A stretch of DNA of 64,000 nt from Candidatus Parcubacteria bacterium (GTDB lineage: Bacteria > Patescibacteriota > Minisyncoccia > Minisyncoccales > JAGLUP01): positions 1,301 to 65,300 of the forward strand of contig JAGLUP010000004.1 in NCBI GenBank assembly GCA_023134715.1, read 5' to 3'. Made by a program: the position numbers and the translations under genes. Of the stretch, positions 1-60,597 are shown in pieces. The notes beneath the pieces were generated by a model. The model ran no database searches. It was not told the DNA's origin and worked only from the letters and a program-made list of their open reading frames with translations. Numbering within the stretch: the first letter of the stretch is position 1; every line of letters begins with the position of its first letter.

Positions 1-3000
1 TTGAGATGACCAATGTCCAAGCTCTTTAAACAAGGCGCAGTCAATGTTTAAATCTCCGCCCGAACTAACATTTACATCGCTTTGATAGCTTGCGGAATTT
101 GTTTCTTCAATAACAGCGTTTCTGGTTAAGTTGATAATATAAGAGCCAGTGACATGAGTGTTGGAAAGATTCCCGGTTAAAGTAATTGTTGTTCCCGAAA
201 CACTTGAAATAGTCATTTTTTCTGATTCTCCGAAAGAGTTGCCGCCAACTCCGAGAATATCACCGGCAACCCAGCCGGTTGTATCTGAAGTTATTAAATC
301 AGCTTGACTTGAAGTAGCGTTTGAAGCAAGGGTTGTTTTATAATAACTAAGAACAGCCCCATACATATTTAAAGCCCCGCCGCTATTAACAGTTAAATCG
401 CAGGCGTCATCAGCGCTTGAATTAAATTTAAGAGCCGCTGTATAAGAAGACCCGATTCTGGCTCCGGAAGTTCCAATGCTCAAAGTCCCTGTAATAGAAG
501 TTGTACCGTTAGTAGTAAGAGAAGTATCAGTACTGTTAAGAAAAGTAAGCGTGCCGCCAGAGTTTATTGTCAAGCTTGAGGAGGTAGCGTTGCTAACATT
601 TACAGTTACAGTATGAGTGTCTAAAATTGTAACATCATCCGCTGAAGTTGGAACCACTCCGCCGCTCCAAGTTGAGGTTGCGTCCCAGTTCCCAGTTTGA
701 GCTGAAGATATTGCCGCGTCCACGGCAATCTGCCACGAACGAAGCTCCTTAAACACTAAACTGTCACTATGAAATTCAAGAGGTCCCAGCAAATATAAGT
801 AGGGGCTGATGTCTGGCGCGTCAAATTGATATTTTAATTCATACTCTTCCCCCGCTTCCCAATCAACCTGCCATATAATTTCTTTTGTATTTTCGTGTGG
901 TTTCGTGTTCAGTTTCGTGCCTGTTTCGTGTACTACCTCAAAGCTCGCAGGCGCACTTTCTATTACCTGCCCGACGAAATCTTCATTCGCCTTAATTTTT
1001 AATGTTACCTCATAAAACGCCGGGGGATAAATCCTTGTCGGCCCGATTCTCTCAACATCAAAAGCAACCGATTCACGAACCTCAAAAGAGTCAAAAATTT
1101 CACGAACGCCGTTTCGGGTAATCGCTGTTAAATAGAGCTCATATAATCCCAACTCATCCGGGATATCATAATATGCATAGTAATCAGGGGTATTGGTAAT
1201 AGTGCTTGGCCCGCATTCTGAACTTCTCTGAATTGTTTCGTCTTCAGTTGAAAATTCCTTCTCAACTCCTGCCGGACTTTTTACTATCAGAGTCAAATCA
1301 GCGTTGCAAATTGTTTTTCCAATATCATCTAGTACTCCCATTTGAATATAAGCAGAGCTGTCACTGCCTGATAGATATATCGACTTGTTTATATTTATAG
1401 CTAAAACCCCCCATGTAAAATCTTGTTCTGAAATCAATATCGCTTCATCAGTTTCAATCTCAATCTCCATCTTCCATTTGCCCGGATAAAAATCTCTTCC
1501 CGGTTTTGGAATTTTTATTTCAAACCCTTGTTTATTATCAATAAATTTAGTAATCACATGGGCTTCAATTAAAGATTCCTGGCCCATAGGGTTAAAAATT
1601 TTAATTCTGAAATTATTCGGTTCTACTTGAGCCGCAACTTGAGGAACAAAAACAATTTTCTTAATTGCTTTTTTCATCGCCCCTATTATTTCCCCGCCCG
1701 CCTGATTGTCCTCAGGACTTTCGGCGGGTTCCGTGGTTGTGGCTATCTCTTCTGTAGTAGTTGCCACTGCTTCCATGGTCTTAGCTTCCTCGCCCGCCTG
1801 ATTGTCCGCCCCGTAGGGAACCGCAGGTTCTCCTTCGGGGTCTGGACTTTCGGCGGGCTCAATAATAATTATTTCATTCTGCGCAGGAGTATCGGTTTCA
1901 AGAATGCTGTCGTCAGGCAAAGCTGGCTCCCCGCCCGCCTGATTGTCCGCAGGACTTTCGGCGGGCTCGCCATCTTCTCGATTAAAAATTGGTTCTAAAA
2001 CATTTTCAATAACTTCTTCAACTATCCCGTCAATAAATTCTTTTATCGGCTCAATTATTGAAGCTGTTCTTGTTTCTTGATTCTTATAAAACTCGCCTTC
2101 TATAATTTCCGCCTCGTTAACATTAACAAGTTCTTGAAGCTGCTTGACTGTAAATTCTGGTTCTTTAATTACAAAAACCGGCTCTTCATTAGAATGAAAA
2201 CTTTTCTCGCCAAGAGGAGAAATCAATAAATGACTATCTTTAATCCTTATTCTTGGCTTGTCTTTTGTGTCGATTTCATGTTTAGTTTCGTTTTCTTTCG
2301 TGTAGCTCGCCTCCACCCAGACACTGTCAAGATAAGCCGTAATATTTGTTTCGCCTCCCACTGTTCCATCAAACTTAATTTTTAAATTTTTAATGCCTTC
2401 TTCACTTTTTAAAAGAGGAGCTTCGTATTCAAAATAGCCATGATTTAAAGCATTAGACAAGGGAGAAGAAGAAATAATCCCGAGCTTATCCCATGATTCG
2501 CCATCTAAGGAATACCAGATAATAATCTTATCATCAATGTTAGATAAAACCTCCGGATGTTCGTCCTCTATATTTTCTTCAGCTTCAACTATTATTAAAT
2601 CTCCAATCCCCTTAACCGCTTCTTCAAATTTGCTTCCCCAAGTTTTAATTCGGCTTATTGATTTTTTGAAAGAATTCCAAAAGCCCACTGGCTCTTCTAA
2701 TAAAATGTCCTGTTCTTTTTCACCAAGAGCAAAAGAAAATTTAATTTTTGCTGATTGAAAAACTTTATTTTCCTGAGCTTGAACTAAACCTATGGAACCA
2801 AAAATATTTTTTAATTCCCTTTTCGCTTTCTCAAAAAATGAAATCGGCTCATCAGAAATTACTGGCTCAGAAATAATTTCATCAGCTGCTTCTATCTCTT
2901 CTGTCGTTGTTGCCTCTATTGTCTCCTCAATAATAATTATTTCATTCTGCGCAGGAGTATCGGTTTCAAGAATGCTGTCGTCAGGCAAAGCTGGCTCCCC

Positions 3001-4047
3001 GCCCGCCTGAATATCTGCCCCGCCTGCATCGCTATGCGAAGCATTGCGGGCAGGAAGATTTTCGGCGGGTTCCGTGGTTGTGGCTATCTCTTCTGTTGTT
3101 GTAGCTATCTCTTCTGTTTCACTGACCTCCTCTATCGCCACATCCTCTTCTACCTCAGTTAATTCTTCCACAAATTCATCAATGCCAGTATCTGTCTCAA
3201 CATCGTCATCACTCAACTCTTCACTGACAAACTCTCCGCATATTAATGTAAGCGCCCCTGTTTTATAAACAGCTGAATTTGCTTCAGAAAAATTATTAAT
3301 ATCTCCATTGGACAAAACATCAGGCGGCCCTTGCGCATTTTCTGAATTTTGCCAACCACCCGTAAATTGAGTCGGATAAAAATTAATAATCTCTGTCTCC
3401 CCTCCTGTAATGGCCGTGATAACAGAATTTTGTAAAAATTTTATAGGAGCAAAACCAGAAAGTAAAAACAATACTACAAAAGCCGCTAAAGCAAATCTCC
3501 AACCAAATTGAAAAGTTTTTATAGTTTTTATATGTTTAATCCACGGGATTAAACAATTTTTAATTTCTGAAATTTGCTTTTTTAATTTTTTAAACGCAAC
3601 TACTTTAAACGCAACCACAGGAATAGGAACTGACACACGTCGGGTCTGTGTTAATTTTAAGGTTTTTCTATTTTTATATTCCATCACTGCTCTTTTTGTA
3701 GTTTGTAAAGAAACTCCAGAATAAGCTTTTCTTCCTTTGAGCTTTCCCTCGCGAATCAAAAAACCAATATAGTCAGAACTATAACCAGAAATTTTTGCCG
3801 CTTGTTTTAAAGAAAGATATCTTCTCCTCAATAAAGAAGAAGAATCTCGGGTAGCGAGATTTTTTGTTTTTTTACAGCATTTTATTATCTCTTTTGGAGT
3901 AATTTTCCAAGAACTTTTAAGAGAAATTTTTCTCCCTTTTATTTTTTTCTCCCGAATTAAAAAACCAATATGGTCAGAGCTATAACCAGAAATTTTTGCC
4001 GCTTGTTTTAGAGAAATATATTTACTTTTTTCTTTGTTTTCTTTCAT
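1..4047 (-). CDS. Giant membrane-anchored surface protein, C-terminus off-window (>=1349 aa)
   Basis: The minus-strand frame appears open from ATG (4047-4045) to the window edge; I translated it only in part by eye. It is probably missing from the ORF track because no stop lies in the window. The N-terminus has two HTH-like repeats (YISLKQAAKISGYSSDHIGFLIREKKIKGRK / YLSLKQAAKISGYSSDYIGFLIREGKLKGRK), then one hydrophobic helix (FGWRFALAAFVVLFLLSGFAPI), then an acidic T/E/D-rich linker. The distal part (SSAQTGNWDATSTWSGGVVPTSADDVTILDTHTVTVNVSNATSSSLTINSGGTLTF) looks like parallel beta-helix adhesin repeats. Confidence 0.8.
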   Translation of the reverse strand, partial: MKENKEKSKYISLKQAAKISGYSSDHIGFLIREKKIKGRKISLKSSWKITPKEIIKCCKKTKNLATRDSSSLLRRRYLSLKQAAKISGYSSDYIGFLIREGKLKGRKAYSGVSLQTTKRAVMEYKNRKTLKLTQTRRVSVPIPVVAFKVVAFKKLKKQISEIKNCLIPWIKHIKTIKTFQFGWRFALAAFVVLFLLSGFAPIKFLQNSVITAITGGETEIINFYPTQFTGGWQNSENAQGPPDVLSNGDINNFSEANSAVYKTGALTLICGEFVSEELSDDDVETDTGIDEFVEELTEVEEDVAIEEVSETEEIATTTEEIATTTEPAENLPARNASHSDAGGADIQAGGEPALPDDSILETDTPAQNEIIIIEETIEATTTEEIEAADEIISEPVISDEPISFFEKAKRELKNIFGSIGLVQAQENKVFQSAKIKFSFALGEKEQDILLEEPVGFWNSFKKSISRIKTWGSKFEEAVKGIGDLIIVEAEENIEDEHPEVLSNIDDKIIIWYSLDGESWDKLGIISSSPLSNALNHGYFEYEAPLLKSEEGIKNLKIKFDGTVGGETNITAYLDSVWVEASYTKENETKHEIDTKDKPRIRIKDSHLLISPLGEKSFHSNEEPVFVIKEPEFTVKQLQELVNVNEAEIIEGEFYKNQETRTASIIEPIKEFIDGIVEEVIENVLEPIFNREDGEPAESPADNQAGGEPALPDDSILETDTPAQNEIIIIEPAESPDPEGEPAVPYGADNQAGEEAKTMEAVATTTEEIATTTEPAESPEDNQAGGEIIGAMKKAIKKIVFVPQVAAQVEPNNFRIKIFNPMGQESLIEAHVITKFIDNKQGFEIKIPKPGRDFYPGKWKMEIEIETDEAILISEQDFTWGVLAININKSIYLSGSDSSAYIQMGVLDDIGKTICNADLTLIVKSPAGVEKEFSTEDETIQRSSECGPSTITNTPDYYAYYDIPDELGLYELYLTAITRNGVREIFDSFEVRESVAFDVERIGPTRIYPPAFYEVTLKIKANEDFVGQVIESAPASFEVVHETGTKLNTKPHENTKEIIWQVDWEAGEEYELKYQFDAPDISPYLYLLGPLEFHSDSLVFKELRSWQIAVDAAISSAQTGNWDATSTWSGGVVPTSADDVTILDTHTVTVNVSNATSSSLTINSGGTLTFLNSTDTSLTTNGTTSITGTLSIGTSGARIGSSYTAALKFNSSADDACDLTVNSGGALNMYGAVLSYYKTTLASNATSSQADLITSDTTGWVAGDILGVGGNSFGESEKMTISSVSGTTITLTGNLSNTHVTGSYIINLTRNAVIEETNSASYQSDVNVSSGGDLNIDCALFKELGHWSSQ
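1697..1728 (+). repeat. GC-rich palindromic element, copy 1 (inside giant ORF)
   Basis: CCCGCCTGATTGTCCTCAGGACTTTCGGCGGG. It has a 6-bp outer stem, an internal loop, a 4-bp inner stem and a triloop. Confidence 0.85.
1793..1857 (+). repeat. GC-rich palindromic element, copy 2 (expanded, nested hairpin)
   Basis: It has the same CCCGCCTGATTGTCC...GGACTTTCGGCGGG termini, with an inserted CCCCGTAGGGAACCGCAGGTTCTCCTTCGGGG hairpin. Confidence 0.8.
1858..1942. repeat. 85-bp direct repeat inside the giant ORF (partner at 2926..3010)
   Basis: The string CTCAATAATAATTATTTCATTCTGCGCAGGAGTATCGGTTTCAAGAATGCTGTCGTCAGGCAAAGCTGGCTCCCCGCCCGCCTGA is identical at both sites. A second ~37-bp repeat lies at 1719-1755 / 3059-3095. 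Confidence 0.9.
1934..1965 (+). repeat. GC-rich palindromic element, copy 3
   Basis: CCCGCCTGATTGTCCGCAGGACTTTCGGCGGG. Confidence 0.85.
3002..3069 (+). repeat. GC-rich palindromic element, copy 4 (divergent, expanded)
   Basis: CCCGCCTGAATATC...GATTTTCGGCGGG with a nested GC hairpin (CCCCGCCTGCATCGCTATGCGAAGCATTGCGGGCAGG). Confidence 0.7.
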
Positions 4048-4157
4048 GCCACATATTTATCTTAAATCTCGAAGTTCGAGATTATCGAGTGCCGAGATTA
4101 TTCTATTTTACCTTGTTTTATAAATCAGTGTCAACTCAATAACTGTGGATAACCTTG

Positions 4158-4774: not shown

Positions 4775-4853
4775 GGAGCGGGGCGGTAAGTTAATTGGCA
4801 AACTCCAGGACCTGTCACTCTTGGAAATGCGGGTTCGAATCCCGTCCGCTCCA
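4775..4853 (+). tRNA. tRNA-Asp(GTC)-like gene, aberrant (possible pseudo-tRNA)
   Basis: The T arm GCGGG-TTCGAAT-CCCGT, acceptor 3' CCGCTCC, D arm AGTT-AATTGGCA-AACT and loop CTGTCAC (anticodon GTC) resemble bacterial tRNA-Asp. However, the 5' acceptor is duplicated (GGAGCGG then GGCGG). The anticodon stem pairs only if the loop is 8 nt (CAGGA-CCTGTCAC-TCTTG). Confidence 0.45.
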
Positions 4854-5311: not shown

Positions 5312-6898
5312 CTAAAAAGAAATTTCAAGGGCAGTGGCTACACTAGCTAAAAATTGTTTGATTGTTTCAAAAAATGTTTGCGGTTCCTCAAAAAAAGGAG
5401 CTGCTTCTTCTGACTGTGGTTCTTGCATAGGCGCAAATTCTTTTTGAGGCATCATCATACCTTGTTCTGGAGGTGTCATTTCTATATATCCTTCTGGAGG
5501 TGTCATTTCTATATATCCTTCTGGAGGTGTCATTTCTATATATCCTTCTGGAGGCGTCATCATTTGTTTCATTTTCTCTGCGTCTTCCGAACTCATCATG
5601 CCTTCTTTGACAGAAAAATTAAAACATTCTTCCATATGTTCAGGATTATCGCAATACGCTTTGCATTCTTCCGGCGTCTGACAACCGCCCGGACCGCCTG
5701 GACCCTCTGGTCCAATTTTTTTAACCATTTCAACTTCTTCCGGCTTTACTAATCCCATTTTCTGACCAAATTCCATACATTCCTGCATATGTTCCGGGTC
5801 TTGACAATAAGCATCACATTCTTCCGGCGTCTGACAACCGCCCGGACCGCCCGGACCGCCAGGCCCAAATTGTTCTCCTATTTTTTTTGTCTCTTCTGCT
5901 TCTTCAGAACTCATAAACCCGGCTTTAACAGCAAATTCCATACATTCCTGCATATTATCAGGATTATTACAATATGCTTCGCATTCCTCTTTTCCCTGAC
6001 ATCCGCCAGGACCGCCAAAAATTCCTGCTTTCGCCATCTTCCTTACTTGTTCTGCTTCTTCAGAGCTCATAAACCCGGCCGCCTCGCCAAAATTAACACA
6101 CTCTTCCATATGCTCTGGCTGGGAACAATAGATGTCGCATTCTTGTTTGTTTCCACACATCGGCGGTTTAATGCCTTTTTCCAATGCCTGAAGCATCATT
6201 CTTGCCTCTTTTTCTTCCTCTGCCGGCATAAGTCCATACTTAAGACCAAACTCTATACACTCTTTCATATGGTCTGGGTTATTACAATAAGCATCGCATT
6301 CCTCTTTTCCCTGACATCCGCCTGGTCCTTTCCCTCCGGTCTTACGAATCATTCCTGCTTCTTCAGAGCTCATAAACCCGGCCGCCTCGCCAAAAGTAAT
6401 ACATTCTTCAAGATGTTCTATCTGAGAGCAATAAATATCACACTCTTGTTTTCCGCGGCAAGGAGGTGGTTTTACTCCTTTTTTAATCGCTATTAGAGCT
6501 TGTTCTGCTTGGGCAAGTTCTTCCGGGGGAATCAAGTTATGCTCTTTGCCAAAAATAATACACTCTTCCATATGCTCCGGCTCATCACAATATATCTCGC
6601 ACTCTTCCTGACCTTGACAGCCGCCTGGGCCAGCCATTGTCTCGAGCATCTCGAGCATTTTCCTGTCTTTTTCTATTTCTTCCTGAGAAAGTAAATTATG
6701 GGCTTCAGCAAAATCAAGACAGGCCTTAGTATTTTCTTCTAAATCGCAATATGCCTCACATTCCTCCATACTGACGCAATTTCCTAATTCAGGAATAGGA
6801 AAATTAACATCAGATAGCAAATCCTCCTCAGCAAACGCAAAACCGCAAAAACCTAAAAAAATAAAAGTAAAAATAAAAACAAAATAAACCTTTTTCAT
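5312..6898 (-). CDS. Secreted cysteine-rich repeat protein (8 x four-Cys module; C-terminal TPPEGYIEM x4)
   Basis: A signal peptide (MKKVYFVFIFTFIFLGFCGFAFA) is followed by eight repeats of about 45-55 aa, of the form (GPGG)C-x4-5-C-x3-C-x8-9-C, e.g. GPGGCQGKEECDAYCNNPDHMKECIEFG. A proline/glutamate-rich tail follows. Confidence 0.85.
   Translation of the reverse strand: MKKVYFVFIFTFIFLGFCGFAFAEEDLLSDVNFPIPELGNCVSMEECEAYCDLEENTKACLDFAEAHNLLSQEEIEKDRKMLEMLETMAGPGGCQGQEECEIYCDEPEHMEECIIFGKEHNLIPPEELAQAEQALIAIKKGVKPPPCRGKQECDIYCSQIEHLEECITFGEAAGFMSSEEAGMIRKTGGKGPGGCQGKEECDAYCNNPDHMKECIEFGLKYGLMPAEEEKEARMMLQALEKGIKPPMCGNKQECDIYCSQPEHMEECVNFGEAAGFMSSEEAEQVRKMAKAGIFGGPGGCQGKEECEAYCNNPDNMQECMEFAVKAGFMSSEEAEETKKIGEQFGPGGPGGPGGCQTPEECDAYCQDPEHMQECMEFGQKMGLVKPEEVEMVKKIGPEGPGGPGGCQTPEECKAYCDNPEHMEECFNFSVKEGMMSSEDAEKMKQMMTPPEGYIEMTPPEGYIEMTPPEGYIEMTPPEQGMMMPQKEFAPMQEPQSEEAAPFFEEPQTFFETIKQFLASVATALEISF
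5467..5560. repeat. 27-bp tandem repeat x3.5 (coding)
   Basis: CTGGAGGTGTCATTTCTATATATCCTT is repeated. It encodes the (M)TPPEGYIE repeats of the Cys-rich protein. Confidence 0.9.
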
Positions 6899-9262: not shown

Positions 9263-9270
9263 ATATTATA

Positions 9271-9374
9271 GAAAACGCAGAAAACCAATTTTCTAAATCG
9301 TGGGGCCCCGCCTTGGCGGGGTAGGGCGCGGTTAGGGGGAAACGATTTAGGAAATTAGGTTTTCGGAGTTTTCG
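9271..9374. repeat. Structured intergenic repeat, family A, copy 1
   Basis: A ~30-bp inverted-repeat stem (GAAAACGCAGAAAACCAATTTTCTAAATCGT / ACGATTTAGGAAATTAGGTTTTCGGAGTTTTC) flanks GGGGC-[CCCGCCTTGGCGGG]-GTAGGGCGCGGTTAGGGGGA. Confidence 0.85.
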
Positions 9375-9440
9375 TAAGTTTAATTTGCTTTATTAAAGTA
9401 TACCAAACTTCAAAACGCAAAACAACAAGCTATTTAAAAT

Positions 9441-12094: not shown

Positions 12095-12373
12095 TTATTT
12101 TTTTATAATTTTTATTGCTTTGCCTTGTATTAATGCCTCTGTTATTTTCTTGCGGGCGGAGATTAAAGTTCGCTGAAGAGTGCTTTGAGAAATTTTCATT
12201 TTCTTGGCAGCTTTAATTTGTTTTAAAGCTTTTAAATCACACAATCTAATCGCTTCTAATTCATCTACACTCAAATTCACCTCTTCTAATATGGAAAGCG
12301 GCACAGCTCTCGGCTTAAAATAAGTAATATTTGGGTTAAACAAAACCCTTCTTGGTTTTATTGGCCTTGGCAT
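12095..12373 (-). CDS. DUF134 (UPF0251) putative DNA-binding protein
   Basis: The MPRPIKPRRV... start and a C-terminal HTH-like ISQSTLQRTLISARKKI. Confidence 0.7.
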   Translation of the reverse strand: MPRPIKPRRVLFNPNITYFKPRAVPLSILEEVNLSVDELEAIRLCDLKALKQIKAAKKMKISQSTLQRTLISARKKITEALIQGKAIKIIKK

Positions 12374-13212
12374 ATTTTTAATTCATCGTAAATATCTTTA
12401 ATCTCATTCTTTGCTTTTAGATTTGTTTCCATAATTGGCGTTAAATTGGAAATGGCTTGGAAGATTTTTTTATCATAAGATATTTTGCCTAAAAATTTAC
12501 CTCGGGCCCATTTTTCCATTCTATTGCTAAATTTTGGATTTATATCCCATTTATTGACCACTACGCCATAAGGAATTTTAAAATGATTAACCACTTCTAA
12601 AACCCTTTTTAAATCAGCAAACCCTGAAGGAGTCGGCTCTGTGATTAAAATAGTAAAATCAGCGTCTTTTAATGCCGCGGTTACCGGACATCCTGTGCCA
12701 GGAGCTGAATCAATAATCATAATAATTTTTCCTTTGTCCGCCATAGCTTTAGCGGCGGCGGATGCTTCGCTTTTTATCTCGTCCACAACCTTGCCTGAAC
12801 CTGTTTCTCCTGGAAAAAGCTGGCCAGAAACCAAAGGAAAATTATACCTTGTCCTTTTAATCCTGATTTCTCCATTCTGAACCGGCTTTAATTTAATAGC
12901 TCCTTTCGGACAAATAACCTCGCAAGCGCCGCAACCCTCGCATAAAAACGGATTTAACGCAGGTTTACCCTGAGGCGTCAACCGAAGGGCGCTAAAGCGA
13001 CAATTCTCAACGCATAATCCGCAGCCATCACATTTTTTATAATCAATCTCTGGTTTTGCGGAAGTAATAACCGGAATAATTTTATCCCAGCTTTTTATTC
13101 CTCCCAACCAAAGAGCTAAATTTGGAGCGTCAGCATCGCAATCCACTGCCACTACTTTTCTTTCTTTAGCAAAAAGCATTGCCAGCGCTGAAGTCAACAT
13201 TGACTTTCCCAC
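12358..13212 (-). CDS. MinD/ParA-superfamily P-loop ATPase with 2x[4Fe-4S] ferredoxin insert (COG1149-like)
   Basis: CDGCGLCVENC and CEGCGACEVIC motifs. The P-loop (ASGKGGVGKS) is encoded upstream of the track's GTG start. The frame is open up to 13266 but contains no ATG/GTG/TTG. Confidence 0.8.
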   Translation of the reverse strand: MGKSMLTSALAMLFAKERKVVAVDCDADAPNLALWLGGIKSWDKIIPVITSAKPEIDYKKCDGCGLCVENCRFSALRLTPQGKPALNPFLCEGCGACEVICPKGAIKLKPVQNGEIRIKRTRYNFPLVSGQLFPGETGSGKVVDEIKSEASAAAKAMADKGKIIMIIDSAPGTGCPVTAALKDADFTILITEPTPSGFADLKRVLEVVNHFKIPYGVVVNKWDINPKFSNRMEKWARGKFLGKISYDKKIFQAISNLTPIMETNLKAKNEIKDIYDELKICQGQ

Positions 13213-13270
13213 TCCCCCTTTTCCACTCGCAATTGTAATTTTTTTTATTTCTTTTTTGATGTATATTTAT

Positions 13271-13376
13271 AAAAACGAAGAAAACAAATTTTGAAATCGT
13301 GGGGCATCCCGATAGGTGAAAGCTATCGGGAGGTAGGGCGCGGTTAGGGGGAAACGATTTCAAAATTTAGTTTTCG
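13271..13376. repeat. Structured intergenic repeat, family A, copy 2
   Basis: It has the same arms and the same GTAGGGCGCGGTTAGGGGGAAACGATTT core as copy 1. The apical hairpin is replaced by CCCGATAGGTGAAAGCTATCGGG. Confidence 0.85.
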
Positions 13377-13382
13377 TAGTTT

Positions 13383-14225
13383 TTAAAATTTAAAATTAAG
13401 CAATTTACCTTTTGAATAAGCCCTTACTAATTCTTTAGAATAAGGAATTTCTTTTTTAATTTTTGTTTTAAATTTTTTAGCGATTTTTTCAACTTTTGTT
13501 TTATCTCCTAAGTCTGCCTGATTTAAAATTATTTTAATCGGTGTTTTAAGCTTTTGGCATAAATCCAAAATTAAACTTAAATCCATTGCTCCCATTGGCG
13601 TTGGTTCAGTAATAATATAAGCGAAATCAACATCTAAAAGAGCGTTAATTACAGGGCAATGAGTGCCAGCCGCCGTATCAAACAAAATATAATCTGCTTT
13701 TACTTTTTTAGCAAAATCTAAGGCAAATTTTTTTGTCTGAGCCACAACCGGCCCTGTTTCTTCAAGTCCTGCATTTGCTTGTCCTGTCGCCAACCAAAAA
13801 TTCTTCTCAATAGGATTAACAAAAATCTGGCCAATTTCTTGTTTTTGAGATTTAATAGCTTTATAAGGACAAACAATCCAGCACGCGCCGCAGCCAGAAC
13901 ATAAATCTTTAACAAATATCGGATATTTCCCTGCCTGTTGAAAAATAGCGTTATTTCGACAGGTTCTAGCGCACAGACCGCACTTTCTGCATTTTGATTT
14001 AATTAATTTTGGAAACTCCGCAAAAACCCTTTGCATCGGTTTTCTTAATTTCTGGCCAAGTAATAAATAGTCATTAGGGCATTCCACGTCACAGTCGCAA
14101 AGAATAACTTTCTTGCCTTTTTTTATTAATTTATTAGCAAATAAAACAGCGACCGTGGATTTTCCTACACCACCCTTGCCGCCGGAAATTGCTATCTGTT
14201 TAATTTTCTTTCGCATTATTCTCAA
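13383..14225 (-). CDS. MinD/ParA-superfamily P-loop ATPase with 2x[4Fe-4S] ferredoxin insert (paralogue)
   Basis: SGGKGGVGKST, CRKCGLCARTC and CSGCGACWIVC. Confidence 0.85.
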   Translation of the reverse strand: MRIMRKKIKQIAISGGKGGVGKSTVAVLFANKLIKKGKKVILCDCDVECPNDYLLLGQKLRKPMQRVFAEFPKLIKSKCRKCGLCARTCRNNAIFQQAGKYPIFVKDLCSGCGACWIVCPYKAIKSQKQEIGQIFVNPIEKNFWLATGQANAGLEETGPVVAQTKKFALDFAKKVKADYILFDTAAGTHCPVINALLDVDFAYIITEPTPMGAMDLSLILDLCQKLKTPIKIILNQADLGDKTKVEKIAKKFKTKIKKEIPYSKELVRAYSKGKLLNFKF

Positions 14226-16170: not shown

Positions 16171-16923
16171 TCAAGTTTTTATTCCGATTGGACAATGGTC
16201 TGAACCCATCACTTTATTGAGAATAAAAGCTTTTTTCAGCTTCATAGACATATTTTTTGAAACAAAAATATAATCCAATCGCCAACCCAAATTTCGCTCC
16301 CTGCAATTAGCAATATGCGGCCACCATGTATAATTTCCCGTTTTTTTATTAAATTTTCTAAAAGTATCGATAAACCCCATTTTAATTACTTTATCAATCT
16401 GCTTTCTTTCTTCTGAAGTAAACATTATATTCTTTTGATTTTGTTTCGGTCTCGCTAAATCAATTTCCTGATGGGCTACATTGAAATCTCCCACCAAAAC
16501 AATTTTTTGATTCTTAATTTTTTTCAAATAGTTTAAAAGATATTTATAAACTTCCAGCTTGTAACCTAAGTTTTCTTTTTGTCTTCCACCGTGCGGCAAA
16601 TAAATATTGATTAAAGTAAAATCAGGATATTTTAGTTTTAAAATCCTGCCCTCTTGGTCAAATCTTTTTAAACCTAATTTATTTTCTACTTTTAACGGCT
16701 TTTTCTTGGAATAAATCGCAACTCCAGAATAGCCCTTTTTAACGGCCTGATTAAAATAAAAATAATAACCCTTTGGCTGAAGCAAATCATCTGGCAGCTG
16801 CTCTTTTTGCGCTCTTATTTCCTGCAAGCAAACAATATCTGCTTTGGATTTTTTAAACCAATTCAAAAAATTCTTTTTACAAGCCGCTCTAATTCCGTTT
16901 ACATTCCAAGATATAATCTTCAT
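16171..16923 (-). CDS. xth: Exodeoxyribonuclease III
   Basis: MKIISWNVNGIRA..., CLQE, and SDHCP at the C-terminus. Confidence 0.9.
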   Translation of the reverse strand: MKIISWNVNGIRAACKKNFLNWFKKSKADIVCLQEIRAQKEQLPDDLLQPKGYYFYFNQAVKKGYSGVAIYSKKKPLKVENKLGLKRFDQEGRILKLKYPDFTLINIYLPHGGRQKENLGYKLEVYKYLLNYLKKIKNQKIVLVGDFNVAHQEIDLARPKQNQKNIMFTSEERKQIDKVIKMGFIDTFRKFNKKTGNYTWWPHIANCRERNLGWRLDYIFVSKNMSMKLKKAFILNKVMGSDHCPIGIKT

Positions 16924-16929
16924 TATCTT

Positions 16930-16938
16930 ATTCTACCA
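16930..16938 (-). promoter_or_regulatory. Extended -10 TGGTAGAAT, 6 nt from the xth ATG (leaderless type)
   Basis: Minus strand: TTTTTTGGTAGAAT-AAGATA-ATG. Confidence 0.5.
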
Positions 16939-19741: not shown

Positions 19742-19785
19742 TTGTATAACACATATACCACGATCGTTGTATGTGTGTTATACAA
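19742..19785. repeat. 44-bp palindrome centred on CGATCG, copy 1
   Basis: TTGTATAACACATATACCACGATCGTTGTATGTGTGTTATACAA. Confidence 0.85.
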
Positions 19786-20875: not shown

Positions 20876-21841
20876 TTAATATTTTTGTTTTATTATATCG
20901 CGCAATATCTTCTCAACTCGCTTCACACTCTTATCGTCAATTATAGAAATTGGAACCACTTCCCTGCCTGTTTTTTTTAACTTATTGAGTTTTTTCTTAA
21001 TTTCGTCTTTATCCAACAAATCGGCCTTGCTCAAAAAAATATATTCTGGCTTATCTAAAAGCTCCTTATTGTAAACACCTAACTCGTTTCTAATAATTTC
21101 ATAATCTTTTACTGGCTCAGGAGATTCCGCGGAAATAAAATGAAAAAGGATTTTTGTTCTTTCAACGTGGCGTAAAAATTTAATTCCAAGTCCCTTGCCA
21201 ACAGAAGCGCCTTCAATAATGCCGGGAATATCAGCCAAAATTAATTCATAATAAGCGCCTAAATTCGGGTCAAGTGTTGTAAAGGCATAATTAGCCACCT
21301 TGCTTTTCGCGTTAGTTAATTCGTTCAATAAGCTGGATTTGCCAACATTGGGCAAACCGATAAATCCAACATCAGCGATAAGTTTAAGCTCTAATCTCAA
21401 TTCGCATTCTTTACCAGGAAAGCCCTGCTCAAATTCCTTCGGGCTTGTATTAGTTGATGAGCGAAATTCAAAATTACCTCTACCGCCCCTCCCCCCTTTT
21501 GCTATTAACAAACGCTGGCCGATAGAAACAATTTCCAAATTTTGACCGGTTGATAAATTATGCGCCACAACGCCAACCGGCACTTTTAAAATAAGGTCTT
21601 TGCCGTCTGCGCCATGGTCAAGTTTAGTTCTTCCATTCTTGCCGTTTTCCGCTTTCAATTCTTTTTTATAGCGAAACAGCTTAAGCGCGCCAAGGTCTGG
21701 CACGCCCTCTATGTAAACACTGCCGCCGCTTCCGCCATTAGCGCCTGTTGGCCCAAGATTCATTTTTACCTTGCTGAATCCTACTGCGCCGCTTCCGCCA
21801 TCACCGGCCTTTACTTTAATTTTTACATCATCAATTAACAT
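20876..21841 (-). CDS. obg: GTPase Obg/CgtA
   Basis: MLIDDVKIKVKAGDGGSGAVGF..., GLPNVGKSSL and DIPGIIEGAS. Confidence 0.95.
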   Translation of the reverse strand: MLIDDVKIKVKAGDGGSGAVGFSKVKMNLGPTGANGGSGGSVYIEGVPDLGALKLFRYKKELKAENGKNGRTKLDHGADGKDLILKVPVGVVAHNLSTGQNLEIVSIGQRLLIAKGGRGGRGNFEFRSSTNTSPKEFEQGFPGKECELRLELKLIADVGFIGLPNVGKSSLLNELTNAKSKVANYAFTTLDPNLGAYYELILADIPGIIEGASVGKGLGIKFLRHVERTKILFHFISAESPEPVKDYEIIRNELGVYNKELLDKPEYIFLSKADLLDKDEIKKKLNKLKKTGREVVPISIIDDKSVKRVEKILRDIIKQKY

Positions 21842-21849
21842 ATTATTTT

Positions 21850-21858
21850 ATTCTACCA
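21850..21858 (-). promoter_or_regulatory. Extended -10 TGGTAGAAT, 8 nt from the obg ATG (leaderless type)
   Basis: Minus strand: hairpin, then TTTTTTGGTAGAAT-AAAATAAT-ATG. Confidence 0.5.
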
Positions 21859-25607: not shown

Positions 25608-26240
25608 TTATTTCCTTTCTGATATTACCTTCGCGAATGCTGAACTATTTTCGTAAAATTTAGTTTTTCCAGTCCATAATTTTCTAATCTTGAATTTTTC
25701 TTTTAATTTTTCTTTAAAATATTCTTCGCTAAAAAAATGTCTAACATGACCGTTTAAGACATACATATCTTTTTCAATAAGTTTCCCCTTTCCATAAAGA
25801 GGGTCATTAGTAGATTTACAGCAAGCACAAAAAATGCCCCCTCGCCTCAAAACTCTTCCAATTTCCTTAAAAATTCTTTTTGTGACTATATCATTAAAAT
25901 AATGAAGTGCCAGATGAGCATAAATTACATCAAAAGAAGCATCTTTAAAATTAAATTTCTTGCTTATATCTTGATTTAAAAAATTGATATTTTTAACGCC
26001 CAAGCTTTCAGTATTTTTCTCTGCTTTTTTTACAGCTTCTTTAGAAAAATCTATAACAGTAATCTTGTGTCCATTTTTGCTAAAAAAGATAGAATCTTTA
26101 CCTATTCCACAGCCAAGCTCTAAAACTCTTGATTTCTTTGGAAAATATCTTATACACTCTTTTGCGAATTCGCTGGTTTCTAAACGAAAAGGTCTTTCTC
26201 TAAAAATTTCATCCCACATTTTCTTTTGATTATAAGTCAT
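25608..26240 (-). CDS. Class I SAM-dependent methyltransferase
   Basis: VLELGCGIGKDS. The start is set at MTYNQKK, which lies 7 nt after a TGGTAGAAT box. Confidence 0.8.
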   Translation of the reverse strand: MTYNQKKMWDEIFRERPFRLETSEFAKECIRYFPKKSRVLELGCGIGKDSIFFSKNGHKITVIDFSKEAVKKAEKNTESLGVKNINFLNQDISKKFNFKDASFDVIYAHLALHYFNDIVTKRIFKEIGRVLRRGGIFCACCKSTNDPLYGKGKLIEKDMYVLNGHVRHFFSEEYFKEKLKEKFKIRKLWTGKTKFYENSSAFAKVISERK

Positions 26241-26311
26241 ATATTCTATTCTACCAAAAAACCATCTTCCTATCAAAAGCAAAACAGGGCTTTCGCCCCG
26301 TTTTTGATAAC

Positions 26312-32149: not shown

Positions 32150-32710
32150 TTATAATTCATCAACCCATACATAAGTACTGCCTGCTGGAACAAATCCGTA
32201 TTTTGTAATCTTACAACCTATCCTTTCGCTTTCTCTAATTAGAATATCATCAAACGATTCTACTTCTATTAACTCAATGTCTTTTGCGTTATTTGTTATA
32301 TATTTTAATTTATTGTCTTTGTCTCTGAAAACAGTTGCCGCATGCTGTCCTTTCATCTCGCCGCTTAACTTGAGACACATTATTTTTACATCATACCCAT
32401 GTTGTTCTAATACATATGAACCAAATGTGGCAAGATTTTTACAATCCCCTTCTTTTATATAAAAAAATTCCTCTGGCGGAAAAGAAATATGTCCTTCGCA
32501 ATCTCTCCATTTAAAATTTTTCTTAATATAATCCAATAACTTTTTTGGCGTGTCTAATTCGCTAACAACTTTTTCAAAATTCGGTTTCTGAATTTTAGAT
32601 TCTGCTTTTTCATCCAGTTCCGTTGACCACAGCGTTGCTGAAATCAAAACCGCCGCTAAAATCAAAACCGCAACACCAATAACACTAATTATTTTTACTC
32701 TATTCTTCAT
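32150..32710 (-). CDS. Membrane-anchored transglutaminase-like (Cys-His) protein
   Basis: An N-terminal TM helix, then EGDCKNLATFGSYVLEQHGY...GQHAATVF, which is compatible with a transglutaminase-type Cys/His core. Confidence 0.45.
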   Translation of the reverse strand: MKNRVKIISVIGVAVLILAAVLISATLWSTELDEKAESKIQKPNFEKVVSELDTPKKLLDYIKKNFKWRDCEGHISFPPEEFFYIKEGDCKNLATFGSYVLEQHGYDVKIMCLKLSGEMKGQHAATVFRDKDNKLKYITNNAKDIELIEVESFDDILIRESERIGCKITKYGFVPAGSTYVWVDEL

Positions 32711-32716
32711 TATTTT

Positions 32717-32725
32717 ATTCTACCA
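32717..32725 (-). promoter_or_regulatory. Extended -10 TGGTAGAAT, 6 nt from the ATG (leaderless type)
   Basis: Minus strand: TTTTTTGGTAGAAT-AAAATA-ATG. It is preceded by the terminator hairpin at 32750-32774. Confidence 0.5.
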
Positions 32726-45402: not shown

Positions 45403-46299
45403 TTATACCTTTATTCCGCGGAGAGCTTTTGTTCTCTCCTCTACTGGCGGATGGGTCTGAAAAAGTTTAGTAAACCAACTTTTAGATTGATCGCCTCTAA
45501 AAGGCGAAGAAATATAAAGATGCGCCGTTGAATTATTAGCTCTTTTTAAAGGAGCTGAATCAGCTGAAATTTTTTCTAAAGCACGAGCTAATCCTTCTGG
45601 ATATCTTGTAAGCAAAGCGCCTGTGGCGTCAGCTAAAAATTCTCTTTTTCTGGAAACAGCAAGCTTAATCGTTGTTGCCGCCAAAGGAGCTAAAATTGCG
45701 GCTAAAATTCCCAAAATAATCAAAAGTGTCCCTCCTGATTCTCTGCGCCGCCTCCCCCCGCCCCAAAAAGTCATTCTTAAAAACATATCTGAAAGTATTG
45801 CCACAGTCCCGACTAAAACCACGACAACTGTTCCTAAAAGCATATCTTTATTCTTAATATGAGCAAGTTCGTGAGCAATCACGCCTTCTAATTCTGCTCT
45901 GTCTAATTTTTCCAATAATCCCTTAGTTACCGCTATTACCGCATGCTTTTCATCTCTACCAGTGGCAAAAGCGTTTGGCTGAAGTTCGTTTAAAATATAA
46001 ATTCTTGGCAAGGGCAAACCAGCGGTAATGCAAAGATTTTCAACCAAGCGATAAAGCTCTGGATTATCTCTTTTTTCAATTAATTTAGCATGAACCATTG
46101 CCAGCACAATTTTGTCTGAATACCAATAACTGGTAAAACTCATTAAAACGCTAAAAACCACTGCTATTATCAAAATAATCTGATTATCAAGCGTATAGCT
46201 GAAAAACCAGCCAAGAGCAATGACAAAAATAAGAAAACCTGTTATCAATAACCAAGTTTTCCGAGTATTTGATTCGGCGTGACTATATAATGTAGACAT
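45403..46299 (-). CDS. htpX: Zinc metalloprotease HtpX (M48)
   Basis: HELAHIKNKD and TM helices. The start is set at MSTLYSH because the upstream 10 codons belong to a repeat element. Confidence 0.9.
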   Translation of the reverse strand: MSTLYSHAESNTRKTWLLITGFLIFVIALGWFFSYTLDNQIILIIAVVFSVLMSFTSYWYSDKIVLAMVHAKLIEKRDNPELYRLVENLCITAGLPLPRIYILNELQPNAFATGRDEKHAVIAVTKGLLEKLDRAELEGVIAHELAHIKNKDMLLGTVVVVLVGTVAILSDMFLRMTFWGGGRRRRESGGTLLIILGILAAILAPLAATTIKLAVSRKREFLADATGALLTRYPEGLARALEKISADSAPLKRANNSTAHLYISSPFRGDQSKSWFTKLFQTHPPVEERTKALRGIKV

Positions 46300-46303
46300 A
46301 AAA

Positions 46304-46440
46304 GAAAACGCAGAAAACAAATTTTTCAAGGCGAAAATTCTGTATTTTCTGAGACGCGTAGGGCTCCCTCCCGATAGGTGGAAGCTATCGGGATGGGATA
46401 AAGCGCGAAGAAAAGACAGAATTTGAGCAAGAAAAATTTT
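46304..46440. repeat. Structured intergenic repeat, family B copy 1 (preceded by a family-A-like arm)
   Basis: GAAAACGCAGAAAACAAATTTTT (the family A arm), then GCGAAAATTCTGTATTTTCTGAGACGCG-TAGGGCTCCCT-[CCCGATAGGTGGAAGCTATCGGG]-ATGGGATAAA-GCGCGAAGAAAAGACAGAATTTGAGC. Confidence 0.85.
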
Positions 46441-46993
46441 AAAACTGAACTTTTGGTGTTTCTCGCTCTTCTGCTTCTGTTAGTTCAAATAATTCCATCT
46501 TTTTAAAACCAAACATATTGGCAATAATACTTGATGGAAAACTCTCAACCTTAATGCTTAAATCCCGAACATTAGTGTTGTAAAATCTTCTTGCCGCTTG
46601 AATTTTATCTTCAGTATCCCGCAATTCTCTCTGAAGCTCTAAAAAATTCTGAGACGCTTTTAAGTCAGGATAACTTTCAGATACGGCAAAAAGAGATTTC
46701 AAAGCGCCGGTAAGCATATTTTCCGCTTGTCCATGCTCTTGAACTGATTGCGCTCCCATTGCTTTAGTCCTGGCTTCGGTCACTTTTTGAAAAACTTCTT
46801 TTTCATGACCAGCATATCCTTTCACTGTTTCCATCAAATTGGGAATTAAATTATATCTTCTCTTTAGCTGGACATCAATATCAGCCCATGCCTCTTGCGC
46901 CCGATTGCGAAGTTTTACCAAGCTGTTATAAACAGCAATTATTCCTAAAGCCAAAACCGCAACCACGATTAAACCTAAATATAATGAATCCAT
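46439..46993 (-). CDS. lemA: LemA family protein
   Basis: An N-terminal TM helix and the motifs RYNLIPNLMETVKGYAGHEKE...RRFYN. Confidence 0.85.
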   Translation of the reverse strand: MDSLYLGLIVVAVLALGIIAVYNSLVKLRNRAQEAWADIDVQLKRRYNLIPNLMETVKGYAGHEKEVFQKVTEARTKAMGAQSVQEHGQAENMLTGALKSLFAVSESYPDLKASQNFLELQRELRDTEDKIQAARRFYNTNVRDLSIKVESFPSSIIANMFGFKKMELFELTEAEERETPKVQF

Positions 46994-49659: not shown

Positions 49660-49841
49660 ATAATGCGATATTAATATACAAATTCATCCGAATCATACGA
49701 ACAAATTTTATTCGTAAATTTGAATATATTCATAAATTAATATCATTTAATCTATTTTTTGTTCCATGTTCTATGTTTTATGTTCTATGACTTTATTATA
49801 ACCAAAAACCCCTTAAAAAGCAAAGAGATTTTGGGAAATTT

Positions 49842-52037: not shown

Positions 52038-53994
<1,957 letters not shown>

Positions 53995-54080
53995 AAAACA
54001 TTGAACATAAAACATAGAACATAAAACATAAATTTGTTATGTGTTATGTATTATGTGTTATGTGATTAATATATACTCTA

Positions 54081-55437: not shown

Positions 55438-55481
55438 TTGTATAACACATATAGCACGATCGTTGTATATGTGTTATACAA
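55438..55481. repeat. 44-bp palindrome centred on CGATCG, copy 2
   Basis: TTGTATAACACATATAGCACGATCGTTGTATATGTGTTATACAA. Confidence 0.85.
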
Positions 55482-60478: not shown

Positions 60479-60489
60479 AATTTTTGAAT

Positions 60490-60578
60490 GCGAAAATTCT
60501 GGATTTTCTGAGACGCGTAGGGCTCCCTCCCGCCTTGGCGGGAAGGGATAAAGCGCGAAGAAAAGACAGAATTCGAGC
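60490..60578. repeat. Structured intergenic repeat, family B copy 2
   Basis: It has the same backbone as 46331-46428. The apical hairpin is replaced by CCCGCCTTGGCGGG. Confidence 0.85.
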
Positions 60579-60597
60579 AATGAAAAAAAAATAAACA

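Follow-up and report, generated by a model that had tools for sequence, protein, structure and literature searches.

The spacer between lemA and htpX is filled by a long inverted repeat, and this locus raises two questions: whether the repeat controls htpX or belongs to a dispersed family, and whether the arm beside it stems from a second family. The spacer lies in the window, the whole stretch of 64,000 nt analysed here, which has approximately 35% G+C and carries almost all of its genes on the − strand. It comes from a Parcubacteria bacterium, and assembly GCA_030673145.1 contains it too. From the lemA stop codon (46439–46441, − strand) to htpX (− strand) it measures 139 nt. With a probability of about 0.65, we read 46304–46439 as a composite of two related, non-autonomous palindromic interspersed repeat families (A and B) of the Rickettsia RPE or ERIC-like kind; the repeat is real but selfish-looking, and it is not a switch for htpX. 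The sequences that a first-pass annotation had quoted from this locus were all found where it had placed them. The features are as follows.

45403–46299, − strand: htpX (M48 peptidase), start ATG at 46299 (MSTLYSH...)
46304–46318, + strand: orphan outer left arm of family A, GAAAAC-GCA-GAAAAC = GAAAACGCAGAAAAC, unpaired in the fold
46319–46327, + strand: 5' half of the outer AT stem, AAATTTTTC, paired with 46431–46439 in RNA and DNA folds
46331–46428, + strand: family B body (copy B1), covariance model R1, 47.6 bits, E = 4e-12
closing part of B1, + strand: GC/GC pairs, then a GAA/UGA internal loop (from the fold)
46336–46350 with 46409–46424, + strand: stem P1 of B1, followed by a GAGA/A loop
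46355–46359 with 46403–46407, + strand: stem P2 of B1, CGCGU/GCGCG, followed by an AGGGC/UAAA loop
46365–46368 with 46395–46398, + strand: stem P3 of B1, UCCC/GGGA
46370–46392, + strand: apical hairpin module of B1, CCCGATAG-GTGGAAG-CTATCGGG
46431–46439, + strand: 3' half of the outer AT stem, GAAAAATTT, abutting the lemA stop codon
46439–46993, − strand: lemA, whose stop codon touches the element; relatives keep the same gene order, with lemA before htpX

The composite region folds as one long rod (−51.8 kcal/mol, z = −6.8; none of 200 shuffles folds as well). The fold and the covariance model bear out the inverted-arm body that had been proposed at 46331–46428. A single further exact occurrence exists for each core block, at 60510 for GAGACGCGTAGGGCTCCCT (46351) and at 60545 for GGGATAAAGCGCGAAGAAAAG (46395); shuffles lead one to expect 0. 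The apical hairpin allele of B1 is also present in a family A copy of the window (A2, 13308–13330), and a close variant occurs in a family A element of a relative (L019).

The first-pass annotation had extended the family A arm to 46326. This stood for 46304–46318, which is identical to the arm of copy A1, but 46319–46327 pairs as the outer AT stem of B. The second B copy, B2, has an AATTTTT/AAAAA outer AT stem at the matching place; therefore, 46319–46327/46431–46439 is part of the B unit of this genome, and only 46304–46318 is specific to family A within the composite. Because AAATTTTTC resembles the start of the long stem of A, AAATTTTGAAAT, a plausible A/B junction lies at 46319–46327. The orphan arm stays single because there is no right-hand GTTTTC-NNN-GTTTTC to pair with it; where this partner would lie, the lemA coding sequence starts (46439).

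Exact matches to GAAAACGCAGAAAAC occur in the window at 9271 (9271–9285, in A1) and at 46304, against a chance expectation of approximately 1e-4 estimated from the window base composition. The similarity at 46304 extends through AAATTTT, as in A2, A3 and the L019 family A copies. The arm might be taken for a chance AT-rich similarity beside an ordinary B copy, since the sequence is A-rich, the genome is AT-rich and matches to GAAAACGCAGAAAAC with up to three mismatches are common; the first-pass annotation had itself named a chance resemblance of about 23 nt, with no other chimeric copy, as the outcome that would speak against it. However, the match is an exact 15-mer that extends to 21–23 nt, the orthologous locus of L019 holds a family A element with the same arm and orientation, and L023 carries a second chimera. 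A chance origin, which had hardly any probability, is thus already refuted.

The remaining copies in this genome are as follows.

9266–9377, + strand: A1, between PRPP-synthase-like and beta-propeller genes, both on the − strand
13266–13388, + strand: A2, between two MinD/ParA-Fer4 paralogues, both on the − strand
L029:18105–18233, + strand: A3, the third A copy, approximately 4.7 kb to the right of the window, from the rpoC stop codon to the ftsK GTG
60479–60592, + strand: B2, between the RNase J stop codon (60478) and the trpS ATG (60598)

A1 is built from an outer stem GAAAAC/GUUUUC, a GCA/GGA loop, a long stem, AUCGU/ACGAU and a GGGGC loop, and the 22-nt family A core lies at 9322 and 13334. 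Against the covariance model of B, A1 obtains 21.9 bits (E = 4e-4), with strand and layout in agreement; the A model scores B copies weakly. Judged from sequence, families A and B are related to each other. They also have apical hairpins in common in this genome: CCCGCCTTGGCGGG is found in A1 and B2, and CCCGATAGGTGRAAGCTATCGGG in A2 and B1. A3, which is oriented like the other four copies, carries a third apical hairpin, CCCCCTCCTTTTCGCGCTTGCGCAAAAGGAGGGGG. The four G tracts of the A core make a G-quadruplex possible, but the conserved hairpin would be in competition with it, and no such tracts exist in B. To the left of A2, the MinD/ParA-Fer4 gene at 12358–13257 (− strand) has no ATG, GTG or TTG in frame upstream of its P-loop; it probably starts with ATA or ATC, or its start region was altered by the neighbouring A element.

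Outside the window, a pattern with the exact B core retrieved 18 further copies, one in the GTDB genome L001 (a MAG) and 17 in metagenome contigs; the invariance of the B core is therefore partly imposed by the way the copies were gathered. Exact-pattern scans of viral contigs for the A and B cores gave no match. The covariance model also finds divergent B cores at L015:369–456 and L023:7325–7413. MAFFT full-arm alignments left some copies out of register and were replaced by a hand-structured, ungapped seed of nine sequences, from which model R1 was built and then used to align the 20 copies. All 20 adopt the same fold, whose consensus is as follows.

outer part: outer stem of 3–5 bp; internal loop of approximately 4 by 4 nt (GnAA / YGRA)
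middle: stem of 17–22 bp, differing in sequence between loci; GAGA/A loop; P2 CGCGU/GCGCG
tip: AGGGC/UAAA loop; P3 UCCCGC/GCGGGA; variable apical loop, often C(GNA)G

Allowing for an alignment that was fitted to the model, 98% of the cells in the 20-copy alignment are paired and 21 of the 31 pairs show changes on both sides. None of 500 shuffles reached these values of pairing and covariation, and slid registers pair in only 31–59% of the cells. Compensatory changes keep the arms paired at the old orthologous loci efp, galT and prmC, and selection for a function and conversion from copy to copy fit these changes equally well. B1, A1/A2 and three metagenome copies gave no credible match to Rfam 15 on either strand at gathering or permissive thresholds; the sub-threshold matches were generic hairpins (microRNA precursors). 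A search of the literature on repeats and structured RNAs in candidate-phyla-radiation bacteria likewise found no description of either family, and both are apparently undescribed hairpin repeat families of approximately 100 bases.

Three other readings of the conserved parts were discarded. A small ORF on the folding strand, AAGGAG-N-ATG ... GGA TAA, can be drawn as MKFCETRRAPAAAG in L005, L007 and L018, but the second codon is TAA or TGA in L004, L008, L009, L015 and L016. A box C/D-like GUGAUGA...CUGA lies in Watson-Crick pairs of the stem, and its CUGA is often CUGG or CGGG. A promoter serving the folding strand, or one within the arm serving the downstream gene, would require a consistent −10/−35 signal, which the copies do not show.

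The idea that the two families recombine or nest, put forward from the htpX locus, gains support from the exact 15-mer, the shared apical hairpins and two loci in relatives. The lemA–htpX spacer of L019/L020 holds a complete A element with the orientation and left arm (GAAAACGCAGAAAACAGATTTT) seen at 46304. The groES–groEL spacer of another genome (L023:7289–7467) holds the second composite, in which A-type arms (GAAAACCAATTTTTTAAA / TTTAAAAAATCTGGTTTTC) surround a window-subtype B body; the folding energy of this composite is −58.4 kcal/mol for the element strand and −43.9 kcal/mol for the gene strand. The outer AT stem of the B units in the window, AAATTTTTSAAKGC, resembles the start of the long stem of A, AAATTTTGAAATCG, so that a series can be drawn from the full A shell in L023, through the left arm and AT stem of B1, to the AT stem alone of B2. 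At the htpX locus, a resident A element, as in L019, might have had its interior replaced by B via the AAATTTT stretch; alternatively, the newcomer might have been a B-in-A composite like that of L023, whose right outer arm was then lost where it met the lemA coding sequence. Both histories are recombination or nesting, leaving only the left A arm.

A typical copy fills its spacer: the upstream stop codon touches or lies within the 3' arm, and the downstream ATG is 4–13 nt from the 5' arm. The downstream genes are mutually unrelated (galT-like, gnd-like, ftsQ, efp, femAB-like, htpX, gatA, groEL, ftsK, trpS, beta-propeller and MinD-like). Three of approximately 24 copies lie in frame inside ORFs. 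One is in the linker of DprA, between DNA_processg_A and DprA_WH; the other two are at one site of two orthologous PrmC-like methyltransferases, just before the MTS domain, where the arms differ and covary. All of these ORFs stay open. Read in reverse complement, the core is free of stop codons in all three frames; the folding strand contains TAG and TAA. For annotation, it matters that the repeats encode the additional peptides of DprA and PrmC.

The first-pass annotation had suggested comparing the htpX upstream regions of relatives, and empty, A-filled and B-filled states were found. Together with two further spacers, the states are as follows.

lemA–htpX, L025 (HtpX 93% identical, same downstream synteny): empty, 15 nt
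lemA–htpX, L019/L020 (HtpX 89%): complete family A element
lemA–htpX, L021 (HtpX 78%): empty, 6 nt
lemA–htpX, L023 (HtpX 77%): empty, TAATG overlap
lemA–htpX, L027 and L028 (HtpX 80–81%): other hairpins
lemA–htpX, L016 (HtpX 67%): family B
RNase J–trpS, DG_74_2 and L030/L031 (TrpS 90%): empty, TAA-AAAT-ATG
RNase J–trpS, L021: genes adjacent, empty
groES–groEL, L023: filled, 179 nt
groES–groEL, L019, L021 and the window: 4–19 nt

All three spacers thus show both filled and empty states among the relatives compared, and copies have been gained or lost even between close relatives. A comparison of filled and empty states at these spacers revealed no target-site duplication, only A/T-rich microhomology, and the gene tables of the loci compared contained no transposase or autonomous parent element. 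The empty lemA–htpX spacer of L025 (L025:206–220), AGAAAATTCTAAATT, shares a 9-mer, GAAAATTCT, with the B left arm and, like the window spacer, ends with AAATT. This could be what a deleted element left behind, or it could mark a preferred target.

The position directly upstream of a heat-shock protease gene, and the B copy that precedes htpX in L016 as well, would suggest a regulatory leader specific to htpX, for instance a riboswitch or an RNA thermometer responding to heat shock. However, the same families precede efp, galT, ftsQ, femAB-like, gnd-like, gatA, groEL, trpS and ftsK, L025, L021 and L023 carry no element in the htpX spacer, it is the htpX-antisense strand that folds, and Rfam gave no match. 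Such a leader is therefore extremely improbable and already contradicted. Since the htpX spacer is empty in L025 and the families occur beside many unrelated genes, the element is not tied to htpX.

The start of htpX itself had been placed at MSTLYSH (46299) rather than at the called ORF start, and this placement proved correct: the 298-residue product is 100% identical to, and of equal length with, an NCBI Parcubacteria M48 peptidase. The htpX orthologues open with MxxLYxHAESN (e.g. MNLYTHAESN), and the ten extra codons from TTG 46329 simply read the A arm in reverse complement. The TTG-extended start is an artefact of the repeat arm, and ORF callers will extend upstream genes into such elements.

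Shine-Dalgarno sites are absent from most genes in the window, and almost no gene has one. An extended −10 box, TGGTAGAAT, lies 5–8 nt before the ATG of at least four genes versus 0.01 expected (− strand, 16921–16938, 21839–21858, 26238–26256 and 32708–32725, plus related copies of repeat family D4), and these boxes are usually preceded by a GC hairpin and a T run. Many genes here carry TGGTAGAAT 6–8 nt ahead of the ATG. The scarcity of Shine-Dalgarno sites and the TGGTAGAAT boxes before ATG codons suggest leaderless messages, and the organism appears to use them with the promoter directly against the start codon. In the empty spacer of L025, a TAGAAT −10 box lies 5 nt before the htpX ATG. This box is lost in the window, so that htpX is probably transcribed from lemA by read-through, behind a hairpin of approximately −47 kcal/mol. 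On the gene strand the orphan arm reads GUUUUCUGCGUUUUC and lies 4 nt upstream of the htpX AUG; it would probably supply a 19-nt unpaired, U-rich tract between the hairpin and this AUG.

This arrangement raises the question of whether the hairpin acts on the gene strand as a terminator or processing site that ends or cuts the lemA message, or couples htpX translation by bringing the lemA stop and htpX start codons together at its base. The element occupies the entire spacer from the stop codon to the ATG, many B copies have the upstream stop codon inside an arm and the ATG 6–13 nt past the hairpin, the local genes lack Shine-Dalgarno sites and the gene-strand RNA of the B1 region still folds to −47.5 kcal/mol. 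However, wobble pairing points to the other strand in 19 of the 20 copies, copies are also found inside coding sequences or between divergent genes, and the spacer is empty in L025. Neither strand has a T run after the hairpin; no terminator-like or promoter-like site was predicted at B1 or B2, and the flanks of the 20 copies lack T runs. We consider this function improbable.

In 19 of the 20 B copies, the written strand is more stable than its complement, and over the 20 copies there are approximately 50 G-U pairs on the written strand versus approximately 12 on the complement. Family A shows the same asymmetry (−48.2 vs −38.3 and −44.0 vs −36.6 kcal/mol). DNA parameters favour the same strand with smaller gaps. 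Mutational bias was considered as the source of the one-strand excess of G-U pairs and rejected, since the GC skew of the window implies that deamination on the G-rich gene strand would place wobble pairs on the opposite strand. Because the wobble asymmetry runs against deamination, it reflects selection or the manner of copying.

The folding strand is antisense to both flanking genes at approximately 14 of 16 independent loci; many other loci are not independent because they are orthologues. The exceptions are B2, the only copy in sense with its flanking genes (RNase J and trpS), and the L013 copy, which lies between divergent genes. Within the 72 kb covered of the source genome, the five copies share one orientation, and this includes B2, which sits amid oppositely oriented genes. 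A replication origin at 55.4 kb was considered as an explanation for the sense orientation of B2 and rejected: the + gene blocks have a skew near 0, not a positive one, and the divergent gene arrangement is conserved in relatives. Gene orientation and GC skew suggest a replication direction which, if correct, puts the folding strand on the leading-strand template. Ton-Hoang et al. (2010) reportedly found the opposite for single-strand transposons of the IS200/IS605 type.

Long hairpin repeats unrelated to A and B occur in the groES–groEL and lemA–htpX spacers of other relatives (L027:1394–1528 and L028:9779–10000). The L027 hairpin folds to −50.4 kcal/mol in the direction antisense to the genes versus −31.3 kcal/mol, and the L028 repeats are likewise far more stable in the antisense direction. 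The strand asymmetry may be general for the intergenic hairpins of these bacteria.

These properties could point to a host function, in which a structured nucleic acid antisense to the genes, a small RNA or a single-stranded DNA site, would mark gene boundaries, for example by halting antisense transcription or by organizing replication or recombination. It would be bound through its core by a putative conserved Parcubacteria protein, and mobility would be secondary. The core is conserved across genomes with HtpX only 67% identical, the long stem covaries, pairing is kept at old orthologous loci, even within prmC, and the G-U pairs lie on the strand opposite to that expected from deamination. 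The strong orientation bias and the like asymmetry of the unrelated L027 family also fit such a role. However, copies are absent from the matching spacers of the closest relatives, and therefore no copy is needed at a given gene pair. There is no promoter-like site upstream and no U tract downstream, a promoter for the folding strand would need to sit in the first codons of unrelated genes, Rfam gave no match and one copy is in sense orientation. We regard a host function as rather unlikely.

A doubtful proposal of similar standing is that the families are not decaying selfish repeats but a new class of strand-specific hairpin elements of candidate-phyla-radiation bacteria. Such a class could be of either of two kinds. 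The first would be a mobile element in single-stranded form, incorporated at gene junctions as part of the nascent lagging strand, with template exchange allowing shells, cores and apical hairpins to be swapped. The second would be a host-maintained antisense-strand structure, bound by a putative conserved protein, that punctuates operons of leaderless genes without Shine-Dalgarno sites. If this were true, the one-strand wobble, the uniform orientation of the five copies and the compensatory evolution in prmC would be functional signatures, not by-products.

Our preferred reading, a composite of two non-autonomous interspersed repeat families, accounts for the element as a rod of 95–130 nt with a short outer stem and a small purine-rich internal loop, followed inward by a long AT-rich stem, in which pairing alone is required, then the conserved G-rich core and, at the tip, an apical hairpin that can be exchanged. 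The elements would spread or be exchanged as a single-stranded hairpin, of DNA or RNA, with a putative protein recognizing the conserved core. Copies may recombine together via their common AT stems and the CCCG...CGGG base of the hairpin.

Among the nearest known systems are the RPE, which are palindromic, form several related families, lie between genes and in frame in unrelated housekeeping genes, where they add a peptide, and have no known transposase (PMC10969869). Families A and B resemble them as palindromes of approximately 100–150 nt in a reduced genome, with related families and with in-frame copies that spare the protein domains. They differ in their Parcubacteria host and in that most copies are intergenic, exactly between stop and start codons. 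RPEs are not known to show so strong an antisense bias, one-strand wobble, nesting of families or a common pool of apical hairpins. Since the hosts are unrelated, the likeness is an analogy, judged from descriptions.

Imperfect intergenic palindromes of approximately 100–130 nt in operons, with a conserved core, also recall ERIC/IRU, Correia/NEMIS, BOX and RUP. Repeats of the ERIC/IRU type have internal-insertion variants and presence/absence differences between relatives, and BOX is modular (in part from the review PMC10969869). In contrast to ERIC/MITE-like palindromes, A and B showed no IS-type terminal inverted repeats and no TA or other target duplication at the sites compared, their sequences are unrelated and in-frame intragenic copies are frequent. 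With classical MITEs they have in common that they are small, non-coding and multicopy (five or more copies within the 72 kb covered of the source genome, and over 20 beyond it), with long inverted arms and insertion polymorphism between related genomes; however, the lack of target-site duplication at the three spacers with filled and empty states sets them outside this group.

A GTAG beside a GC-rich stem, in B as GCGTAGGGC-UCCCGC and in A as G(G)TAGGGCG, recalls the REP sequences, whose hairpins are likewise thought to act single-stranded. GTAG-tagged REPs (RAYT/TnpA-REP) lie mainly between codirectional genes, and some are intragenic (PMC3733652). REPs are 20–40 bp long with the tag abutting the stem, whereas the A/B unit, with its long AT arms, measures 95–130 nt, three times the length of a REP. 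In B, 3 nt separate the tag from the stem; in A1/A2 the tag is found 3' of the hairpin, and L019 has ATAG in its place. An unsystematic look through 315 kb noticed no RAYT gene. The attC sites and IS200/IS605 ends are similar in that one strand folds and its orientation is fixed relative to genes or replication. Their recognition by structure and a few conserved unpaired bases is what we propose for A/B. However, A/B have no R'/R'' GTTRRRY consensus, cassette array or nearby integrase or TnpA; their ends are GAAAAC/GTTTTC or AGCC/GGCT and their neighbours core housekeeping genes, and they do not qualify as attC sites. Families A and B are best described as new families of a known kind of element, unusual in their one-strand signature, antisense bias and module exchange.

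Although the genomes of Parcubacteria are tiny and their stop and start codons overlap, 100-nt hairpins are tolerated or kept exactly at these junctions and inside essential genes. The families provide a ready marker of recent genome change among close relatives and show, in nature, how repeat families recombine by modules. The one-strand pairing signature has to be explained, by a single-stranded intermediate or an antisense function.

Several other features of the window were observed. A CATAACA/TGTTATG-type inverted repeat lies upstream of groES (53995–54075), with a related copy at 49756–49789; it may be a heat-shock operator unlike CIRCE. groES itself probably starts at 53994 (96 residues, as called in L029), not at 54015. 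A 44-nt near-perfect palindrome, TTGTATAACACATATAGCACGATCGTTGTATATGTGTTATACAA, is present in two copies (19742–19785 and 55438–55481), the latter in the divergent intergenic region between an MFS transporter and the holin-like/SecG/RNase J/trpS block; the palindrome might serve as an operator or belong to a further repeat family. ARAGORN calls a tRNA at 4780–4853 (+ strand) with a two-base anticodon 'gt' and no assigned identity, which the Rfam tRNA model scores at 48 bits; this is a tRNA with an unusual anticodon loop or an interrupted tRNA. Tandem and dispersed coding repeat families with periods of 27 nt and approximately 155 nt occupy 5312–6898 (− strand), within a cysteine-rich ORF of 528 residues, and the region to its left at 1600–4100.
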